Position numbers and translations under genes: made by a program
The notes under the pieces: generated by a model
The model's database searches: none
What the model was told of the DNA's origin: nothing
The model's input: the letters and a program-made list of their open reading frames with translations, nothing else
Shown here: piece by piece, positions 1,582 to 55,320 of the stretch
Layout: the number at the start of each line of letters is the position of its first letter
How positions within the stretch are numbered: position 1 is the first letter of the stretch
Origin: Octopus vulgaris
Lineage: Eukaryota
DNA: 64,000 nucleotides
Assembly: GCA_951406725.2 (NCBI GenBank)
Contig: OX597815.1
Span: forward strand, 208,072,001-208,136,000
Direction of reading: 5' to 3'

Positions 1582-1672
1582 AACAAGAGGCAAGATGAGG
1601 AAAAATATCCGTCGAATGTAAATAATTCCTCATCTCGTAAATATAGAACTGAATTCAGGGATAGTTTGAATT

Positions 1673-2161
1673 CACCTACCATACTCTGAGCGCCTTGTTT
1701 CCCTGGGCATGGATTCACTGAAGCTCTGGCGTCTGGCGATGGACTTGGTAAACACCCACAAAGTTATCAACCACCTCACCAATAACAACACTGAACACCT
1801 TTTTGATCTCCATGTGTCCAACACACGTGGACATGCCTACAAAGTCAGAAAACAGCACAGCTCCCATGACTTTTGGAAACATTTTTTCACGCTCAGAGTT
1901 GCTGAAGCATGGAACAAACTGCCTGCGTCAGTTGTTGACTGCCATGACACTGCATCCTTTAAGGCCCTCATGCTTTCCAAAATCCGCTGAAACTACACCT
2001 GATTGTTCCCCTTTCATACTCATACACATATGTGTATGTCATGACTCATGCACTGTTCTTTTCCTGACGCTTGTACATTACCCTATGTACCATACATACA
2101 CTTTAGATGAGTTGTAGTGCACCTGAGCACTGTACACAATGTTTTATTATTATTATTATTA
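1673..2161 (+). mobile_element. CR1-clade LINE 3' fragment (ORF2 C-terminus, 3' UTR, (ATT)n tail)
   Basis: In frame from 1673: HLPYSERLVSLGMDSLKL..DL..TRGHAYKVRK..HFFTLRVAEAWNKLPASVV..SFK, the typical CR1 ORF2 C-terminus; ends in (ATT)n. Confidence 0.85.
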
Positions 2162-15689: not shown

Positions 15690-16117
15690 AAGGGCACCAT
15701 TCGAGCGAGATCGTTACCAGCATCACCTTACTGGCACTTGTGCCCATGCTAGTAGGGTGCCAAGAGCACCATCCAAGTGTGATCGTTGCCAGAGCAGCCA
15801 ACTAGCTTCCATGTCAGTGGCATGTAAAAGAGCACCATTCAAGCATGATCGTTACCAACGTCGCCTTACTGGCACCTGTGCTGGTGGCATGTGTAAAAGG
15901 ATTCAAGCGAGGTCGTTGCCAGTACCGCCTGACTGGCCCACGTGCTGGTGGCATGTAAAAAGCACCCACTACACTCTCGGGGTGGTTGGCGTTAGGAAGG
16001 GCATCCAGCTGTAGAAACTCTGCCAAATCAAGATTGGAGACTGGTGCAACCATCTGGTTCACCAGCCCTCAGTCAAAATCGTCCAACCCATGCTAGCATG
16101 GAAAGCAGACGTTAAAC

Positions 16118-34877: not shown

Positions 34878-35141
34878 GCCCCGTGCTGGTGACACGTAAA
34901 ATAACCATCCGTTCGTGGCCGTTTGCCAGCTCTGTCTGGCACCTGTGCGGGTGGCACGTAAAAAGCACCCACTACACTCACGGAGTGGTTGGCGTTAGGA
35001 AGGGCATCCAGCCGTAGAAACACTGCCAGATCTGACTGAGCCTGATGAAGCCTTCCAGCTTCACAGACCCCAGTTGAACCGTCCAACCCATGCTAGCATG
35101 GAGAACGGACGCTAAATGATGATGATGATGATGATGATGAT
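34878..35141 (+). mobile_element. Family E element
   Basis: Near identical to 3966-4140 plus (GAT)n tail. Confidence 0.87.
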
Positions 35142-35350
35142 ATTGGTAAAAACGGTAAGATAACAAAAGAAAGAAAGAGATCTCAATATTATGTAAATAG
35201 AGGAAATTTATCTATAAAATAATATGTTACAATTACTCAATAGTCAATATATATATATATATATATATAGACCCCGGTCAAACCATCCAGCCAATGCTAG
35301 CATGGAAAACGGACGTTTAAACGAAGATGATGATATATATATATATATAT

Positions 35351-35545
35351 CCTGTGCCTGTGACACGTAAAAAGCACCCCCTACACTCTCGGAGTGGTTG
35401 GCATTAGGAAGGGTATCCAGCTATAGAAACTCTACCAGATCAAGATTGGAGCCTGGTGCAGCCATCTGGTTCGCCAGCCCTCAGTCAAAATCGCCCAACC
35501 CATGCTAGCATGGAAAGCGGACGTTAAACGATGATGATGATGATA
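35351..35545 (+). mobile_element. Family E element
   Basis: Same motifs; 3' subfamily like the 15690 copy. Confidence 0.85.
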
Positions 35546-35643
35546 TATATATATACATATATATGTATGAGTGTGTGTGTGTCTGTGAGTATGTATATAC
35601 ACCATAAGTTCAAACATATACACGTTTTTCTTTCTTTTGGAAT

Positions 35644-35680
<37 letters not shown>

Positions 35681-35914
35681 CAACATGATTACAGGTTAAG
35701 AAGGTTGCTTTCCATCAATCTGATTTCAGCTTTATGTAATATCTTCTGTTATCCTTTAAGTTTTGAGCTCAAATTATGTCAAGGTCAATTTTGCATTCAT
35801 CTTTTTGGGGTTAATTAAAAAATTACTAGTCAAGTACTGGAGCTGATCTAATCGGCCTGCAGCCCACCCCAAATACCAAGCCTTGTACAATATTAGAAAC
35901 AGTCATTTTTATTA

Positions 35915-36380
35915 GGGCAGTGTGCTGGCAGAATCTTTAGCACTTTGGGTGAAAGACTTATTTCTTTACTGCCCACAAGGGGCTACACACAGAGGGGACA
36001 AATAAGAACAGACAAACGGATTAAGTCGATTATATCGACCCCAGTGCGTAACTGGTACTTATTTAATTGACCCCGAAAGGATGAAAGGCAAAGTCGACCT
36101 CAGCGGAATTTGAACTCAGAACATAACGGCAGACGAAGTACCGCTTAGCATTTTGCCTGGCATGCTAACGTTTCGGCCAGCTCAATGCCTTTCTCTGGGT
36201 GAAAGTCTTAGCAACATTGTGTCCATCTTTATGTTCTGAATTCAAATTTCACTGAGGTCGACTTGGCCTTACCTCCTTTCAGAGTTGATAAATTAAGTAC
36301 CAGTGGAATACTGGTGGCTGATGTAACCGACTATCCCCCGCCTCAAAATTTCAGACCTCGTGCCTATAGTAGAAAGGATT
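35915..36380 (+). mobile_element. Old family B SINE interrupted by a younger inverted family B copy
   Basis: Head GTGCTGGCAGAATC at about 35920; body resumes after 36210. Confidence 0.7.
35961..36195 (-). mobile_element. Family B SINE (nested)
   Basis: 15-bp TSD TGGGTGAAAG(A/T)CTTA (35946-35960, 36196-36210). Confidence 0.88.
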
Positions 36381-36404
36381 ATTATTATTATTATTATTAT
36401 TATT

Positions 36405-36913
36405 GAGTGAGAGAGCAGTGCATGCCATCAAAGTGACACTGGGGTAAAATATACGAAGCCCAATATACCCATCATGACTACCCGTCTGATAAAGGTACAC
36501 CAGGCACATGCATCACAACCATATGTGCGCGACATGGTGATCTCATATCAAGATAAACAGCACATGACCTTGCAGGTGGGGCCCAGTTAGAATTTTCTTC
36601 AGGTTGAGTAGCCCATCCCGCTCAAAAGGTCCCTGAATAAGGATTGTTTAAGGATGTTGAAAGAACCACCCATGTTTCCAGAGGTGAATTATTCAAACCC
36701 CAAAGGATCCCTCTCAACACATGGCTATGATGCTCCCCCACTACTTCTGCTCGTGATCAGAGATGCACATATCGTCAGCCACTAAGGGACATGCTCAACT
36801 GGTTACGGTCAAACAACTGACAAGCAAATCTGTGGTATTGAGCAGAATATTGGCTGTAGCCCATCTTTTATACCAAGACAAAACAATGTACATGATAACA
36901 CTTCCAATCAGTT
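36405..36913 (-). mobile_element. Putative 5'-truncated retroelement 3' region with (AAT)n tail
   Basis: GC-richer block bounded by ATT repeats, with the longer tract on the left as expected for a minus-strand tail; single copy in the window. Confidence 0.45.
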
Positions 36914-37021
36914 ATTATTATTATTCAAGTGGTGGACTGTCTGAATTGCTAAGTTTTGTATAAAATACACTAGTTTACTGCATGAGAACATATATATTTA
37001 ACACACATAGGTTATACAGAC

Positions 37022-37073
<52 letters not shown>

Positions 37074-37111
37074 GAAAGAAGGTTTGAAAACGCAATTTAA
37101 AAGATGTTTAT

Positions 37112-37156
37112 TTACTTTACCGGTTTCATTCTTTGGAAAAAGTTTGTCAAAAGTAA
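37112..37156 (-). ncRNA. Type-I hammerhead motif, U3-A8 variant
   Basis: Minus strand TTACTT-TTGACAA-ACTTTTTCCAAAGAAT-GAAA-CCGG-TA-AAGTAA. Confidence 0.62.
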
Positions 37157-37305
37157 CATGTAGAAGTTTGGTTGCGTTAATTATTGGTTGTTGCAAATTG
37201 CTACATTACATATAACATTACATATAACCCTGTTACCAAAGACTGTATATATGTAATGTAGCAATTTGCAACAACCAATAATTAACGCAACCAAACTTCT
37301 ACATG

Positions 37306-37350
37306 TTACTTTTGACAATCTTTTTTCAAAGAGTGAAACCGGTAAAGTAA
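37306..37350 (+). ncRNA. Type-I hammerhead motif, U3-A8 variant
   Basis: TTACTT-TTGACAA-TCTTTTTTCAAAGAGT-GAAA-CCGG-TA-AAGTAA: 6-bp stem I, palindromic ACCGGT stem III, GUA site. Confidence 0.65.
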
Positions 37351-37586
37351 ATAAACATCTTTTAAATTGCATTTTCAAACCTTCTTTCGTATATAATTCC
37401 ACTCGTGCGGTACCCCACAACTCCACTTTGTTATATATATATAATTATTGGTTGTTGCAAATTATTGGTTGTTGCAAATTGCTACATTACATATAACATT
37501 ACATATAACCCTGTTACCAAAGCATGTATATATGTATTGTAGCAATTTGCAACAACCAATAATTAACGCAACCAAACTTCTACATG

Positions 37587-37631
37587 TTACTTTTGACAAT
37601 CTTTTTTCAAAGAGTGAAACCGGTAAAGTAA
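37587..37631 (+). ncRNA. Type-I hammerhead motif, U3-A8 variant (tandem copy)
   Basis: Same sequence as 37306-37350, 281 nt downstream. Confidence 0.65.
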
Positions 37632-37718
37632 ATAAACATCTTTTAAATTGCATTTTCAAACCTTCTTTCGTATATAATTCCACTCGTGCGGTACCCCACA
37701 ACTCTACTTTGTTATATA

Positions 37719-37754
<36 letters not shown>

Positions 37755-38339
37755 TGTATGTATATATGTCCTACATTTGCGTGTTAAGTGTTATGATGAA
37801 TATCACTTCAAATGTGATAATAACCATATTAGTTTAATATTTTAAGGTTTTAACAGACTTATGTGTAGAGGCCAGCTGCAAACCATGCTTTGAATGCAGC
37901 AAGCATTTGAATTTATGCAACAATCTCTGGTTTCTTCTACTTCAGCCTCTATAAATTGTTGATATATTTCTACTGTGAGATTATTTATTATTTCTTCAGA
38001 TTTTTGTTGTTTATTATAGTCTTCTCTTTTTCCTTCTTTGTTTTTTCTTTTTCTTAATTTATAAATTCAAAGAAGATTCTTGTCATTCTTTTAGACAACA
38101 CAGATGGGAAATAAGTATCGATATGAATATTTCAAATTTTATCGAATAACAACCAAAATGTCGTGTAAAACTTGAATAAGACATCCCTTTTGCCTTTATA
38201 AATTTTCAATACAAAATTATATGTGTGTGTGTGTGTGTGTGTGCGCGCGTACGTGTGTGCATGTATATTTTCTCACACACACATACACACACATTTATAT
38301 GTATAAGTTTCCTTTCGATGTAAATTGGATTAATAAATT

Positions 38340-38345
38340 TATTTA

Positions 38346-38378
<33 letters not shown>

Positions 38379-38397
38379 GTGATTATTATTATTATTA

Positions 38398-38444
<47 letters not shown>

Positions 38445-38492
38445 TTTATTATTGTGATTATTATTATTTATACTATTATTATTATTATTATT
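38340..38492. repeat. (ATT)n microsatellite
   Basis: Direct inspection. Confidence 0.93.
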
Positions 38493-38699
38493 TGTTTCAT
38501 ATTTGAATTTTGTTTGCTGCTACTTATTTTATTCGCTCCAGATACTCTATTCCATGTGTTTAGAAGTTGAAAATTACAAATTGATATTTCATTTAGAGAA
38601 AGATTTAAAAAACGAATTAACAGTTTTAATTTCTTTCCTATTCTATTATTCTTATAATCATTCCTAACTTTTCCCCCTTTATTTTCATGTATTTTTTTT

Positions 38700-39282
38700 T
38701 ACTTCCTTCACTCATTTAACTGTGGCCATGCTAGAGTACCGCCTTTAGTCAAACAAATCGACCCCAGGACTTATTCTCTGTAAGAGTGGTACTGATTCTA
38801 TCGATCTCTTTTGTTGAACCGCTAAGTTACAAGGACGTAAACACATCAACATCGGTTGTCAAGTGATGATGGGGGGTACAAACACAGACACACAAACATG
38901 TATATATATATATCGCTAAATCCACAAGTATTTTTATTCTCTCTCTCATTATTTTCTCTTATTCCTTTCTGCTGAAGAGCATAGGCTCGAAACATAAACG
39001 ACTTTCTCACTTTCCTGAGAATCAAACTAATACACCTGCTTGTTGTTCATACACCTGTCTTCGTCTTTTGTTTTTCTGTAAATTTCAACTATATATACAT
39101 ACATACATACACACACACACATATATATATATACACACAACAGGCTTCTTTCAGTTCCCATCTACCAAATCCACTCACAAGGCTTTAGTCAGCCTGAGGC
39201 CTTAATAGAAAATACTTGCCCAAGGTGCCATGCAGTGAGGCTGAACCCAGAACCATGTGGTTGAGAAGCCACTCCTGCACCT
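38700..39282 (-). mobile_element. Family A SINE whose internal (TA)n hosts a hammerhead-bearing element
   Basis: Tail half at about 38700-38900 and head half at about 39135-39282. Confidence 0.78.
38913..39090 (+). mobile_element. About 180-bp pLTR-like element with hammerhead-like motif (38965-39000)
   Basis: Paralog of 20603-20793; CTTT-CTGCTGA-A-GAGC-ATAG-GCTC-GAAA-CA-TA-AACG; flanked by (TA)n. Confidence 0.68.
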
Positions 39283-40335
39283 TTAACTAAGTTTGTATGT
39301 AGCATATGGTTAGATAATGTTTTGACAATTTTTACCCGTGGCCCTTGTGGAAAGGGTATTAGGCTCTCTATCAAAAAGGTTGTAGGTTTGATTCTTAGAC
39401 TTGGCAACAAATTGTGTCCTTCGTCAAGGCACTTTATTTCATGTCATTCCAGTCTCCCCAGTTGAAATGAATACCAGTTCATTGCTAGGACAGCCCTTTC
39501 TCCTTGTAGCTGTAAAATTCTGGTAGTTGGGTCATGTGCAGTGAAACCAGGAAGGTGCCAACATCGACATGTGACCACATAGGCACTGAAAATAACTTGT
39601 GAAAACATAGTACATGCTTTCAAGTCCTCAATTCCTAGTGACAGCCATAGCAGAGCAGCAGCAGCAGCCGTCCCAGAATTTGGACCTGGAGATCTCCATT
39701 TCCAGCGACTTCGAGGGCCACCTCCCAGTGGTGTCGGGCATCAACGAAGAGCCCTCGACTACAAGACGACCAAAGTTTTTTTTTCTCAAGGTCTGAGGTC
39801 TCCCGCCCCTAAGCCCTAGACCATCGCCTAATAACCCTTACCCATCTTGTTGCTTAACAACAACAACAGCAGAAGCAGCAGCAGTAGCAGCAGCAGTAGT
39901 AGTAGTAGTAATAGTAACAACAGCAGCATAGGTGTGCTTTACCTCTTAGCTTTAAACTTACATTTATATTTCGTCTTAACATTTCAAAGCAAGTACATTA
40001 AAATACACATTATGAATCAGTAATCGCTGTCATTTACACCTGCAATTTAACCATGAACCACAGAGTACCACTTTTCAACCTGTGAACATTGCATTATCTA
40101 ATTCCTTTCCGAGACATAAATCTCTCCGGCTCTGACTCTACCTCTGGCAAACCTCAGTTTTACCTAACATGACATATACTCCAAATACTTAACCTCTTGC
40201 CATGAGTAGCAACACGTAGTGGTTTGGAATTTCCCCTTTCCACCACTCATCTCGTTCACTTGTAGTTCAGCTACAAAGATACTCCACTCTGATTTATATT
40301 TTCGCTTTCTAAGACCTAGCAAATCCTTAACTCTT

Positions 40336-48342: not shown

Positions 48343-48650
48343 TCATCATCATCATCATCATTGTTTAACGTCCGTTTTCTGTGCTAGCATGGGTTGGACA
48401 GTCTGGTAAGCCAGGAGGCTGCACCATGCTCCAGTCTGATCTGGCAGTGTTTCTACAGCTGGATGCCCTTCCTAACGCCAACCACTCCGTGAGTATAGCG
48501 GGTGCTTTTTACGTGCCACTGGCACAGGTGCCAGGGGAGGCTGGCAGCGGCCACAATTGGTTGGTGCTTTTGACGTGCCACAGGCACAGGTGCCAGGTTA
48601 GGCTGGCAGCGGCCACAATTGGTTGGTGCTTTTTACGTGCCACTGGCACA
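48343..48650 (-). mobile_element. Family E element
   Basis: (CAT)n, CTGGATGCCCTTCCTAACGCCAACC and tandem TTACGTGCCAC units. Confidence 0.85.
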
Positions 48651-48745
48651 GATATATGTATAATTGCCATTAAATATGAACACCTACAATGCTAGAAATA
48701 AGAGCTAAAGCACTCTGGTGCTGCAGTCAACGCACATAATTTTAT

Positions 48746-51079: not shown

Positions 51080-52320
51080 TGACAAGTGTTTATGTCTCCT
51101 TTTTTCAAGAACAGCTTGATGTATTGGTAAACAGTCAATGGCAGTGGAGAGCATAAAGACTGAAGTTGTAATTGAGAAAAAGTCAGGTGACATGGAGGAC
51201 TGGAAGCCATTTGTATAGTGGCAAAGCGTTACCTGTATCATGAGGATTTAGGCTGAGAGTCAAAATGCCGACATCATGACCTCTGTTCAAAATTCTGTGA
51301 ACACTGTAAAGGCTGCAAGGCATGAGATGGACAGCTGCAAAAGAGACTATGCATCTGTGGCTGGCAGGAAGAGACACAGCTGGTGTTTTGACTACATTTG
51401 CTTTCTGGAATTCAGCCTTGAATCTGTGAACAGAGACTTAAGCTCATTTCAGATGGCTATGTAGACTCACCTCAGATGGCTAAATAGGCTCAATTCAGAT
51501 GGCTATGTAAACTCAATTCTGATGGCTATGTAGGCTCAATTCAAATGGTTATATAGGTTCAATTCAGATGGCTATGTAGACTCAATTCAAATGGATATAT
51601 AAGCTCAATTCAGATGGCTATGTAGGCTCAGTTCAAATGGTTATATAAGCTCAATCCAAATAGTCATATAGGCTCAATTCAGATGACTTTTTAGACTCAA
51701 TCCAAAAATGCTATTTAGGCTCAATTCAAATGGCTATGTAGACTCAATTCAGATGGTTATGTAGGCTTGATTCAAATGACTATGTAGACTCAATTCAAAT
51801 GGCTTGTAGGCTCATCTCAGATGGCTATGTAAAGTGGCTGGAGATAGTGGTCAAATGTTGGCAGGAGTGGGTTGCTGCTGGACAGTAATATGTGTGGCAG
51901 CAGGATTCAGTTCCTTTCCATACCTCTAGAATGAGTCAGAAGCATTTGTTGGAGAATCTCTATGACTTCACCAGCCCCAATTCCTGGTTTCCTAATTTCC
52001 CAATTGTAAACCCATGAATTACTACATGTTGAGAAACACACCAACTGCTCTGCTTGCAATGCCAAGGCCAAGCTGTTGGCTAAGACGAAGGAGGTGTCCA
52101 AAGATCTTCTCAGGGATGCAGTGAGGAACACATGCACCATGTTCCAAAGCAATCGTGAGGCTGTGGTGGAAGCTGTGGGTGTCTACTTTGAGTAAGGTGT
52201 TATCTTCTAGCCATAATCCAGTAAATATTCTTAGATTTCTTTAAACTACCTTTATTTCCAAATGAGATGTTGTTTTCTTTTTCCTTTTATGCAAACTGTC
52301 AAATTTACCCCGAACACCCA
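51080..52320 (+). mobile_element. Decayed, internally deleted Tc1/mariner-superfamily transposon (DD37D, maT-like)
   Basis: YVWQQDSVPFHTS..SW.PN.P.C.PMNY (37 residues between the second D and the third catalytic position after one frameshift) and C-terminal EAVVEAVGVYFE*; N-terminal MEDWKP.. near 51193; right end ..AATTTACCCCGAACACCC resembles a CAGGGTG-type TIR. Confidence 0.82.
51441..51831. repeat. 23-bp minisatellite, 17 units, inside the transposase frame
   Basis: Consensus GGCTCAATTCAGATGGCTATGTA; units counted by eye. Confidence 0.95.
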
Positions 52321-54039: not shown

Positions 54040-55320
54040 ACTTCGTCAACAGCAGTGTTATTGTCTTTAACAATATTAAAGCTTTAACCAAATCTTGTAA
54101 GGTAATCTGCTTATAAACTCTAATCATGTCTGCATCTCTTAGACTGGGAGTTTTTTGTCACAGTGACATGTATCAACAGGGATCTCTATATTCAAGAGAC
54201 TGTAATCTCTGGTATTACCTCAGAGTTTCATTATGTCTTCTAGTCTCTTCTTCATTGAAGTAATATGTTCAAAAAGGCAATGCAGTAATAATGTAACAGC
54301 CTACTTTCATTCAACAACACTAAGCTGTAGTCCTTACATATATCAGGAAAATAAACCTGAAATATTACACCTTTCTTACTCAACTATAAAACTTCATAAA
54401 TTTTACATTTGCTTGGGCACATAATTTCTCATTACCATTAAAATCAAAATCAAAACATCAAAATCGATCAACATGAATGGAAATTGTAGCTGTGATACCA
54501 GTGCTGGTGGCACATAAGAGAACCCTCCGAATGTGGCCGTTGCCAGTGCCGCCCTGACTGGCTTCCGTGCCAGTGGCACGTAAAAAGCACCATCCGATCA
54601 TGGCCGTTTGCCAGCCTCGCCTGGCCTCCGTGCCGGTGGCACGTAAAAAGCATCATCCGATCGTGGCCGTTCGCCAGCCTCATCTGGCACCTGTGCCGGT
54701 GGTACGTAAAAAGCACCCACTACACTCATGGAGTGGTTGGCGTTAGGAAGGGCATCCAGCTGTAGAAACACTGCCAGATCAGACTGGGCCTGGTGCAGCC
54801 TTCTGGCTTCCCAGACCCCAGTTGCACCGTCCAACCCATGCCAGCATGGAAAGTGGATGCTAAACGATGATGATGATGATGATGATTAACTGTGACCCAC
54901 ATTTCTATAACATAACTAAACCTACACCTCAAAGGCTTGGCGTCCTTTATCAAGACCACAATATGCTTAAACTTTGATCAGCCATGAATCTGTTGCACTG
55001 TTCTACACGAATGCAATCCACAGAGTAATTCTCATACACTTTCAGAAGGAGCAACTGTTACAAATATAAACATCCTAAATCCCATCCAGATGAAGGCTCA
55101 CTCGCTGACTGACAATTCTCCACTTACTAACATGAAAACAATAACCTCTAGTCTATCAGTATATTATATATTCTCTGTCATTTTTAGACTAACTTCAACC
55201 ATTCCTGTTCCTCTAAACTTGGAAATTGTGCACCATCTGTACTAAAACACAGCATCATCTCTACAAAGGCTCACCTTCAAACCCCTTTCTAAACTTTACA
55301 ACAGTCTTTCCTCTCTCAGA
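54040..55320 (+). mobile_element. Highly decayed CR1/L2/Jockey-group LINE RT region, interrupted by family E
   Basis: Remnants LPQSFIMSSSLFFI (like VPQGSILSP.LF.I), NITK..PQRLGVL and NINILNPIQMKA (like ILDRIQ.KA). Confidence 0.5.
54465..54886 (+). mobile_element. Family E element with 3.5 internal units of about 63 bp
   Basis: GTGCC(G/A)GTGGCACGTAAAAAGCA-type units, then the common 3' body and (GAT)n. Confidence 0.88.

Follow-up and report, generated by a model that had tools for sequence, protein, structure and literature searches.

Three hammerhead ribozyme motifs stand close together in the window analyzed here (a 64,000-nucleotide stretch of the Octopus vulgaris genome), two of them in direct orientation at a 281-nt period and the third inverted. 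The question they raise is whether the locus is a small selected retrozyme or the remains of another kind of element. The original prediction favored the former, reading the tandem as a retrozyme-like unit with an atypical core, able to release a small and possibly circular RNA. We find it very probable that the locus is instead a young, 5'-truncated Penelope-like element (PLE) inserted into a (TA)n microsatellite. It would consist of an inverted end and a direct end, and a 281-nt stretch was likely doubled in place at a later time. Its U3-A8 core would be that of a normal pLTR hammerhead, for which cleavage is predicted in the dimer only.

The three motifs were found where they had been predicted (Table 1). 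All are of type I, with a stem I of TTACTT/AAGTAA and a palindromic stem III, and all read U3...A8, so that both core positions are indeed changed in every copy. In hammerhead 1, stem I is formed by 37306-11 and 37345-50, and the core (37312-18, with U3 and A8) is followed by U10.1·U11.1, a 5-bp stem II, and GAA. The palindrome (ACCGGT) occupies 37338-43 and H17 is A. Our structural model places the predicted cuts after 37344 and 37625, the same sites as in the original prediction. An Rfam scan of positions 35000-40000, with E values up to 5, returned no hammerhead family among 42 rows. The top Rfam hits were microRNA-precursor models that fit the long hairpin; they fell below their gathering scores and were rejected. 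Folded singly, the motifs gave z scores of -0.5 and +0.94 and no hammerhead fold as a monomer, as expected for a dimer-type hammerhead. From its sequence, the locus motif is likely the ordinary pLTR hammerhead of the element, a type I U3-A8 hammerhead with a palindromic stem III, and self-cleavage is predicted.

Table 1. Layout of the locus, in window coordinates.
Feature	Positions	Strand	Basis or remark
(TA)n target microsatellite, left flank	37023..37072		Sequence; (TA)n also follows the 3' end in 28/28 other copies
Inverted 5'-truncated copy of the element's 3' end, without the 36-nt tail	37067..37214	-	148 nt, 97% complementary
Hammerhead motif in inverted copy, U3-A8, two private stem II changes	37112..37156	-	
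Inversion junction: 12-nt tandem duplication plus one base	37215..37227		Private to the insertion at this locus
Direct copy 1: last ~204 nt of the Penelope-like element, pLTR and tail	37228..37431	+	96.3% over 216 nt to L093
Hammerhead 1	37306..37350	+	Structure inferred from hammerhead consensus
36-nt tail, direct copies only	37396..37431	+	
Tandem junction: (TA)5, then 17-nt duplication	37432..37459		
Duplicated inverted-arm piece (copy of 37179-37214) and inversion junction	37460..37508	-	Source of the 35-bp hairpin
Direct copy 2, local duplicate of copy 1	37509..37712	+	4 private substitutions
Hammerhead 2, identical to hammerhead 1	37587..37631	+	Predicted cut after 37625
(TA)n/(TATG)n right flank	37713..37769		

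The parent of these fragments is a coding element. Walking upstream from the shared 3' end crosses a CA-rich region and leads to a reverse transcriptase (RT; YLDD), a CGRPNCRTC linker, and YVIRCEGC..YIG. In one copy (L093), the RT, a CX4CxxC linker, and a GIY-YIG-type domain lie in a single stretch whose last 216 nt match window positions 37228-37443 at 96.3%. The linker between RT and endonuclease (EN) reads CGRPNCRTC or CGRPNCKTC and fits CX2-5CxxC. A protein search gave at least 150 matches, those listed being at 92-100% and many of them in frames of 750-850 codons. Ten loci were fetched, chosen for their long frames, and all have frames of 755-847 codons. The window's 3' end was found downstream in the same stretch at nine of them, direct hammerheads on both sides at five (5,817-5,829 nt apart), and an inverted upstream copy at four. 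Nine represent a neighbouring subfamily (91-93% in the pLTR); the sole fetched member of the window's own subfamily is L107, which has a 755-codon frame and matches at 94%. RVT_1 passes its cut-off of 29.6 in both long frames tested, with 32.1 and 34.7 bits (L105 and L107). Pfam GIY-YIG gave no hit to the family's own endonuclease domain at E values of 0.01-0.1; the C-terminal half of the protein is 53% identical over 356 amino acids to that of a sister element that passes the Pfam GIY-YIG cut-off. Motifs and alignment to the sister protein together assign a putative C-terminal GIY-YIG endonuclease with internal cysteines to the family.

Partial-tandem pLTRs occur in the family, as do inverted copies that are truncated at the 5' end, the tail being confined to one end, and a CA-rich 3' region of ~2 kb separates the stop codon from the hammerhead. 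These characters point to a young, high-copy Penelope-like element with a C-terminal EN, which the linker motif would mark as Neptune/Nematis. Among the truncated long copies L031-L035, no element frame was seen. The 781-codon GIY-YIG family, the most abundant in the genome, has no DNA match to the pLTR and is therefore a sister, not the parent. Outside the locus, the element protein has no match in the window (tblastn).

The loci that we collected hold several further elements and repeats. The 781-codon sister is a second, very young PLE family with many such frames (L046-L052; e.g., L046:2745-5087 +). Its hammerhead is U3-A8 with an ACATGT palindrome and a weak stem I, ~0.9-1.1 kb past the stop, and in L046, L048, and L049 direct hammerheads stand on both sides. 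A third PLE family, downstream of the GIY-YIG region in L039 and L058, has a C3-G8 core and the palindrome AGTACT, also with U·U at the base of stem II. Unrelated U3-A8 minimal hammerheads with differing palindromes were seen in the flanking DNA of L027 (-), L060:1224 (+), L061:7741 (+), and L011 (-). An old internal direct repeat of ~165 nt at 74% identity lies just upstream of the pLTR in L033 (8136-8297 and 8344-8510). The long PLE copies in L031 and L032 adjoin elements with a frame such as the 251-codon frame of L032:852-1605 (reverse-complemented), which may resemble a mariner-type transposase. Elsewhere in the window, positions 51442-51831 hold 17 tandem copies of a 23-nt unit (76% matches), and related tandem units of 62-64 nt lie within SINE-like repeats at 15837-15956, 48501-48651, and 54558-54717. 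A short frame at 1670-1987 (+) presumably resembles the C-terminal end of a LINE reverse transcriptase.

Copies of the element's 3' end are numerous and highly uniform. A first look with a 201-nt query yielded 2,491 candidates across the 2.8-Gb genome; the 40 that were scored showed 98-100% identity, and divergence is about 1% per site among the best hits. All 28 other copies compared share the end base and then run into (TA)n, and upstream they continue in family sequence, not in the window's junction. At eight of these 28 loci, an upstream inverted copy has the same end point as the window's inverted arm, again without the last 36 nt. The window's inverted arm carries three changes private to it relative to the 28. 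A 17-nt hammerhead motif has 613 exact sites in the genome, the first 100 of which include 16 diverging inverted pairs, 2 converging pairs, and 1 direct pair at 2.5 kb. Note that these counts come from exact-match searches, which miss diverged copies, and are therefore lower bounds. The converging pairs, with 3' ends facing in the rarer orientation, lie at G000:C1:162809900-162810033 and G000:C2:38023650-38023931. Another arrangement was seen at L104:2300-6810, where two 5'-truncated family 3' ends stand 2,537 nt apart in direct tandem and enclose no frame.

The U3-A8 pair is the family state. The original prediction had treated it as a compensatory pair and not as decay, and this reading holds, as related families keep a Watson-Crick 3-8 pair. 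Looking for a C3-G8 family consensus, we found 545 exact genome sites of the 35-nt family motif with U3-A8 (reversed control, 0) versus 0 with C3 in the same exact context, a pattern that fixed the other bases and leaves diverged subfamilies outside its reach. Beside long frames, 19 of 19 motifs are U3-A8 and 18 of 19 are U·U; variation there is mostly in loop II (five forms) and at H17 (U or A), and stem II is constant. CpG-type decay as the origin of U3 and A8 is ruled out, because exact-context C3 sites are absent and every long-frame motif is U3-A8.

A relaxed descriptor that permitted any base at positions 3 and 8 matched 105 times in 482 kb of selected loci, most of the hits being copies of two families, versus 2.0 per locally shuffled replicate. 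The 3-8 classes were about 99 U-A, 2 C-G, 2 G-C, 2 A-A, and 1 U-C. Single flank motifs combine U3-A8 with ACGCGT, ACATGT, ACCGGT, or ACTAGT palindromes, and in other element families of the same genome the Watson-Crick 3-8 pair is kept while palindrome and stems differ. That the pair is retained across families of differing sequence points to selection acting on the fold of the ribozyme in the lineage of the element, as distinct from this locus. The earlier suggestion of a ribozyme under selection may thus stand for the fold of that lineage. It does not extend to the 281-nt unit, which is a single-locus duplication.

Stem II turned out otherwise than predicted. The copies had been described as having different single stem II defects that would pair fully in a repaired consensus. 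We find that stem II of the direct copies is that of the family (U·U, then five pairs), that they carry one loop change at 37326/37607, and that the inverted copy has not one private change but two, U10.1 to A and a second that breaks a pair. U is the family base at 10.1 in 27 of the 28 other copies, and the supposedly repaired A-form occurs at 9 sites versus 545 U·U sites. G10.1-C11.1 with an extra base after A9, which is common but not universal in PLE hammerheads, is absent here, and U·U stands instead. The loop change is present in both direct copies and absent from the inverted arm and from all 28 other copies. It also occurs in one L107 copy and is therefore not strictly private.

What, then, is the 281-nt unit? 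Its parts are a 36-nt stretch of the inverted arm, the inversion junction including the 12-nt duplication there, and the direct arm; the two tandem units have a period of 281 and are 98% identical over 265 nt. A 22-mer across the inversion junction has two hits in the genome, both in this window. Among the 613 exact motif sites there is one direct hammerhead pair at 150-450-nt spacing, and it is the window's. The loop change shared by the direct copies, together with the further changes of copy 2 and the 17-nt duplication with which it begins, agrees with copy 1 having been duplicated locally. The predicted internal hairpin of ~35 bp is real, as the 36-nt arm 37460-37495 pairs with 37529-37564. 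It is not a feature of a unit but an inverted arm facing a direct arm, left over from the inversion. The 281-nt doubling is a one-off rearrangement at this locus, not a new circular-RNA element.

These results bear directly on the alternatives. That the locus belongs to a selected retrozyme family with a 281-nt monomer, as the original prediction had it, is hardly tenable. Its size, low GC, and direct tandem do resemble the animal non-LTR retrozymes described in PMC7229834; however, the unit exists once, across a private inversion junction, while hundreds of motif sites lack it, its sequence is the end of a coding PLE, and its hairpin is made of inversion arms. Within the limits of exact matching, the unique junction and the sole short direct pair refute such a family. 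Could the second unit be an assembly artefact, an uncollapsed haplotype or a mis-join, so that the real locus holds the inverted copy and one direct copy? We regard this as unlikely. The units are 98% identical. Of 24 sequencing records, 20 contain part of the stretch, under four organism labels, and no RNA data set is among those listed; in a comparison with contigs from four runs of one organism (contigs cannot show ends, strand, or circles) the tandem junction 37432-37460 was bridged by none among the matches listed (32 pieces, out of a set with 2,219 more). Against this, the outside flank is nowhere doubled, the second unit has its own 17-nt duplication and four private changes, and one contig of run X1, possibly the source sample itself, matches the second unit across its inversion junction (37462-37554, 2 differences). 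An artefact of this kind would leave the element's identity unchanged.

A further alternative accepts the doubling as accidental and gives it a function: transcribed from within the element, it would release a circularisable 281-nt RNA by double-hammerhead cleavage, as a newborn, single-copy retrozyme-like unit. In its favor are two identical direct hammerheads with a 6-nt palindrome and an internal hairpin that brings them together. In RNA of 37290-37650 the two palindromes are predicted to pair with a probability of 0.95, so that the layout is physically able to start a dimer, and both core variants are reported as compatible with activity (PMC3088659, PMC7229834). Yet in this RNA another hairpin takes up stem I and the core, so that the full double hammerhead is predicted to be 8.6 kcal/mol less stable than the minimum. 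In RNA of the whole insertion (37067-37712), hammerhead 1 is predicted to be fully paired with the antisense arm in a 148-bp duplex, and the double hammerhead costs 74.8 kcal/mol. With hammerhead 1 thus buried in read-through RNA, our folding model suggests that only an RNA starting after about 37215 could work. The genome holds one copy, and PLE minimal hammerheads are reported to cleave poorly in vitro even as dimers (PMC4209133). We consider the newborn unit quite improbable. More improbable still is its fullest form, a retrozyme being born from a PLE, in which accidental pLTR duplication made a working unit, the inversion-derived hairpin docks the palindromes, and a doubly variant ribozyme (U3-A8 and U·U) releases a 281-nt circle.

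We therefore return to a truncated PLE insertion with a later local duplication. In the full element, two hammerheads would pair via their ACCGGU palindromes and cut a unit transcript from a longer RNA. At this locus, reverse transcription may have been primed in (TA)n, come to an early halt, and moved to the other strand, which would account for the inverted arm and for the 12-nt duplication at the junction. A later slip at a TA microhomology would then have copied 37179-37443 once more, and the 281-nt unit is therefore likely an unselected by-product.

The locus is one of hundreds of truncated copies, and both the kind of element and the ribozyme variant are already known. The wider interest lies in the family, which could be used to test for in vivo cleavage by PLE minimal hammerheads. 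It offers young copies in which hammerheads flank a long open frame, and its relatives in the genome alternate between C3-G8 and U3-A8 cores and differ in palindrome, yet retain the fold. Should a circle arise from the 281-nt unit, one would see directly how retrozyme-like units can originate at PLE ends. Among the matches listed in a literature search, we found no published description of an octopus Penelope hammerhead family, and the main text of a 2026 octopus repeat paper has no occurrence of hammerhead or ribozyme.

The U3-A8 core had been presented as atypical. It has already been published for Penelope-like hammerheads by Cervera & De la Pena (2014), who used homology to S. mansoni Cercyon PLEs to identify U3-A8 minimal hammerheads, with ~1,300 hits (PMC4209133). 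They also report opposite-strand pairs 100-700 bp apart and weak in vitro cleavage of dimers (PMC4209133); a dimer result of Lunse et al. (2016) is cited here after the review PMC6765202. The octopus motifs resemble the pLTR minimal hammerheads of that account in being of type I, with a palindromic stem III, a pLTR location, and the U3-A8 core. They also share the occurrence mostly as single copies of truncated elements, the opposite-strand pairs, and the direct pairs flanking a frame. Those hammerheads have G10.1-C11.1 and an extra nucleotide, whereas here a U·U base is combined with a 5-bp stem II and a 6-bp stem I. Unlike most PLE hammerheads in the same account, which reports uniformity only for D. 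virilis, the octopus copies are highly uniform. Each departure from the consensus has been described as a natural, cleavage-compatible variant: Perreault et al. (2011) describe natural U3-A8 and U10.1-U11.1 hammerheads (PMC3088659), and cleavage is reported for axolotl HHR_Amex2, whose stem II has a basal U·U (PMC7229834). The passages of these two papers that deal with the variants yielded no motif with U3-A8 and U·U together, though figures or supplements may show one.

The parent element likewise has close counterparts. Craig et al. (2021) describe a 30-40-bp tail, a bias toward microsatellites, partial tandems, and inverted copies in PLEs, and a CX2-5CxxC linker that marks the Neptune/Nematis clades (PMC8557442). 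Like the C-terminal-EN PLEs of that work, the octopus family has RT, linker, and a GIY-YIG-type domain with CCHH-type cysteines, along with partial tandems, an inverted 5'-truncated copy, a one-end tail (36 nt here), and a microsatellite target. It differs from them in its ~2 kb CA-rich 3' region between stop and hammerhead. With the animal non-LTR retrozymes of Cervera & De la Pena (2020), the locus shares a direct repeat of 150-450 nt, type I hammerheads, and low GC (PMC7229834). Those retrozymes, however, are described as forming families of tandem monomers, in which the hammerheads are canonical and circles abundant, whereas the octopus unit occurs once and comes from the terminus of a coding element.
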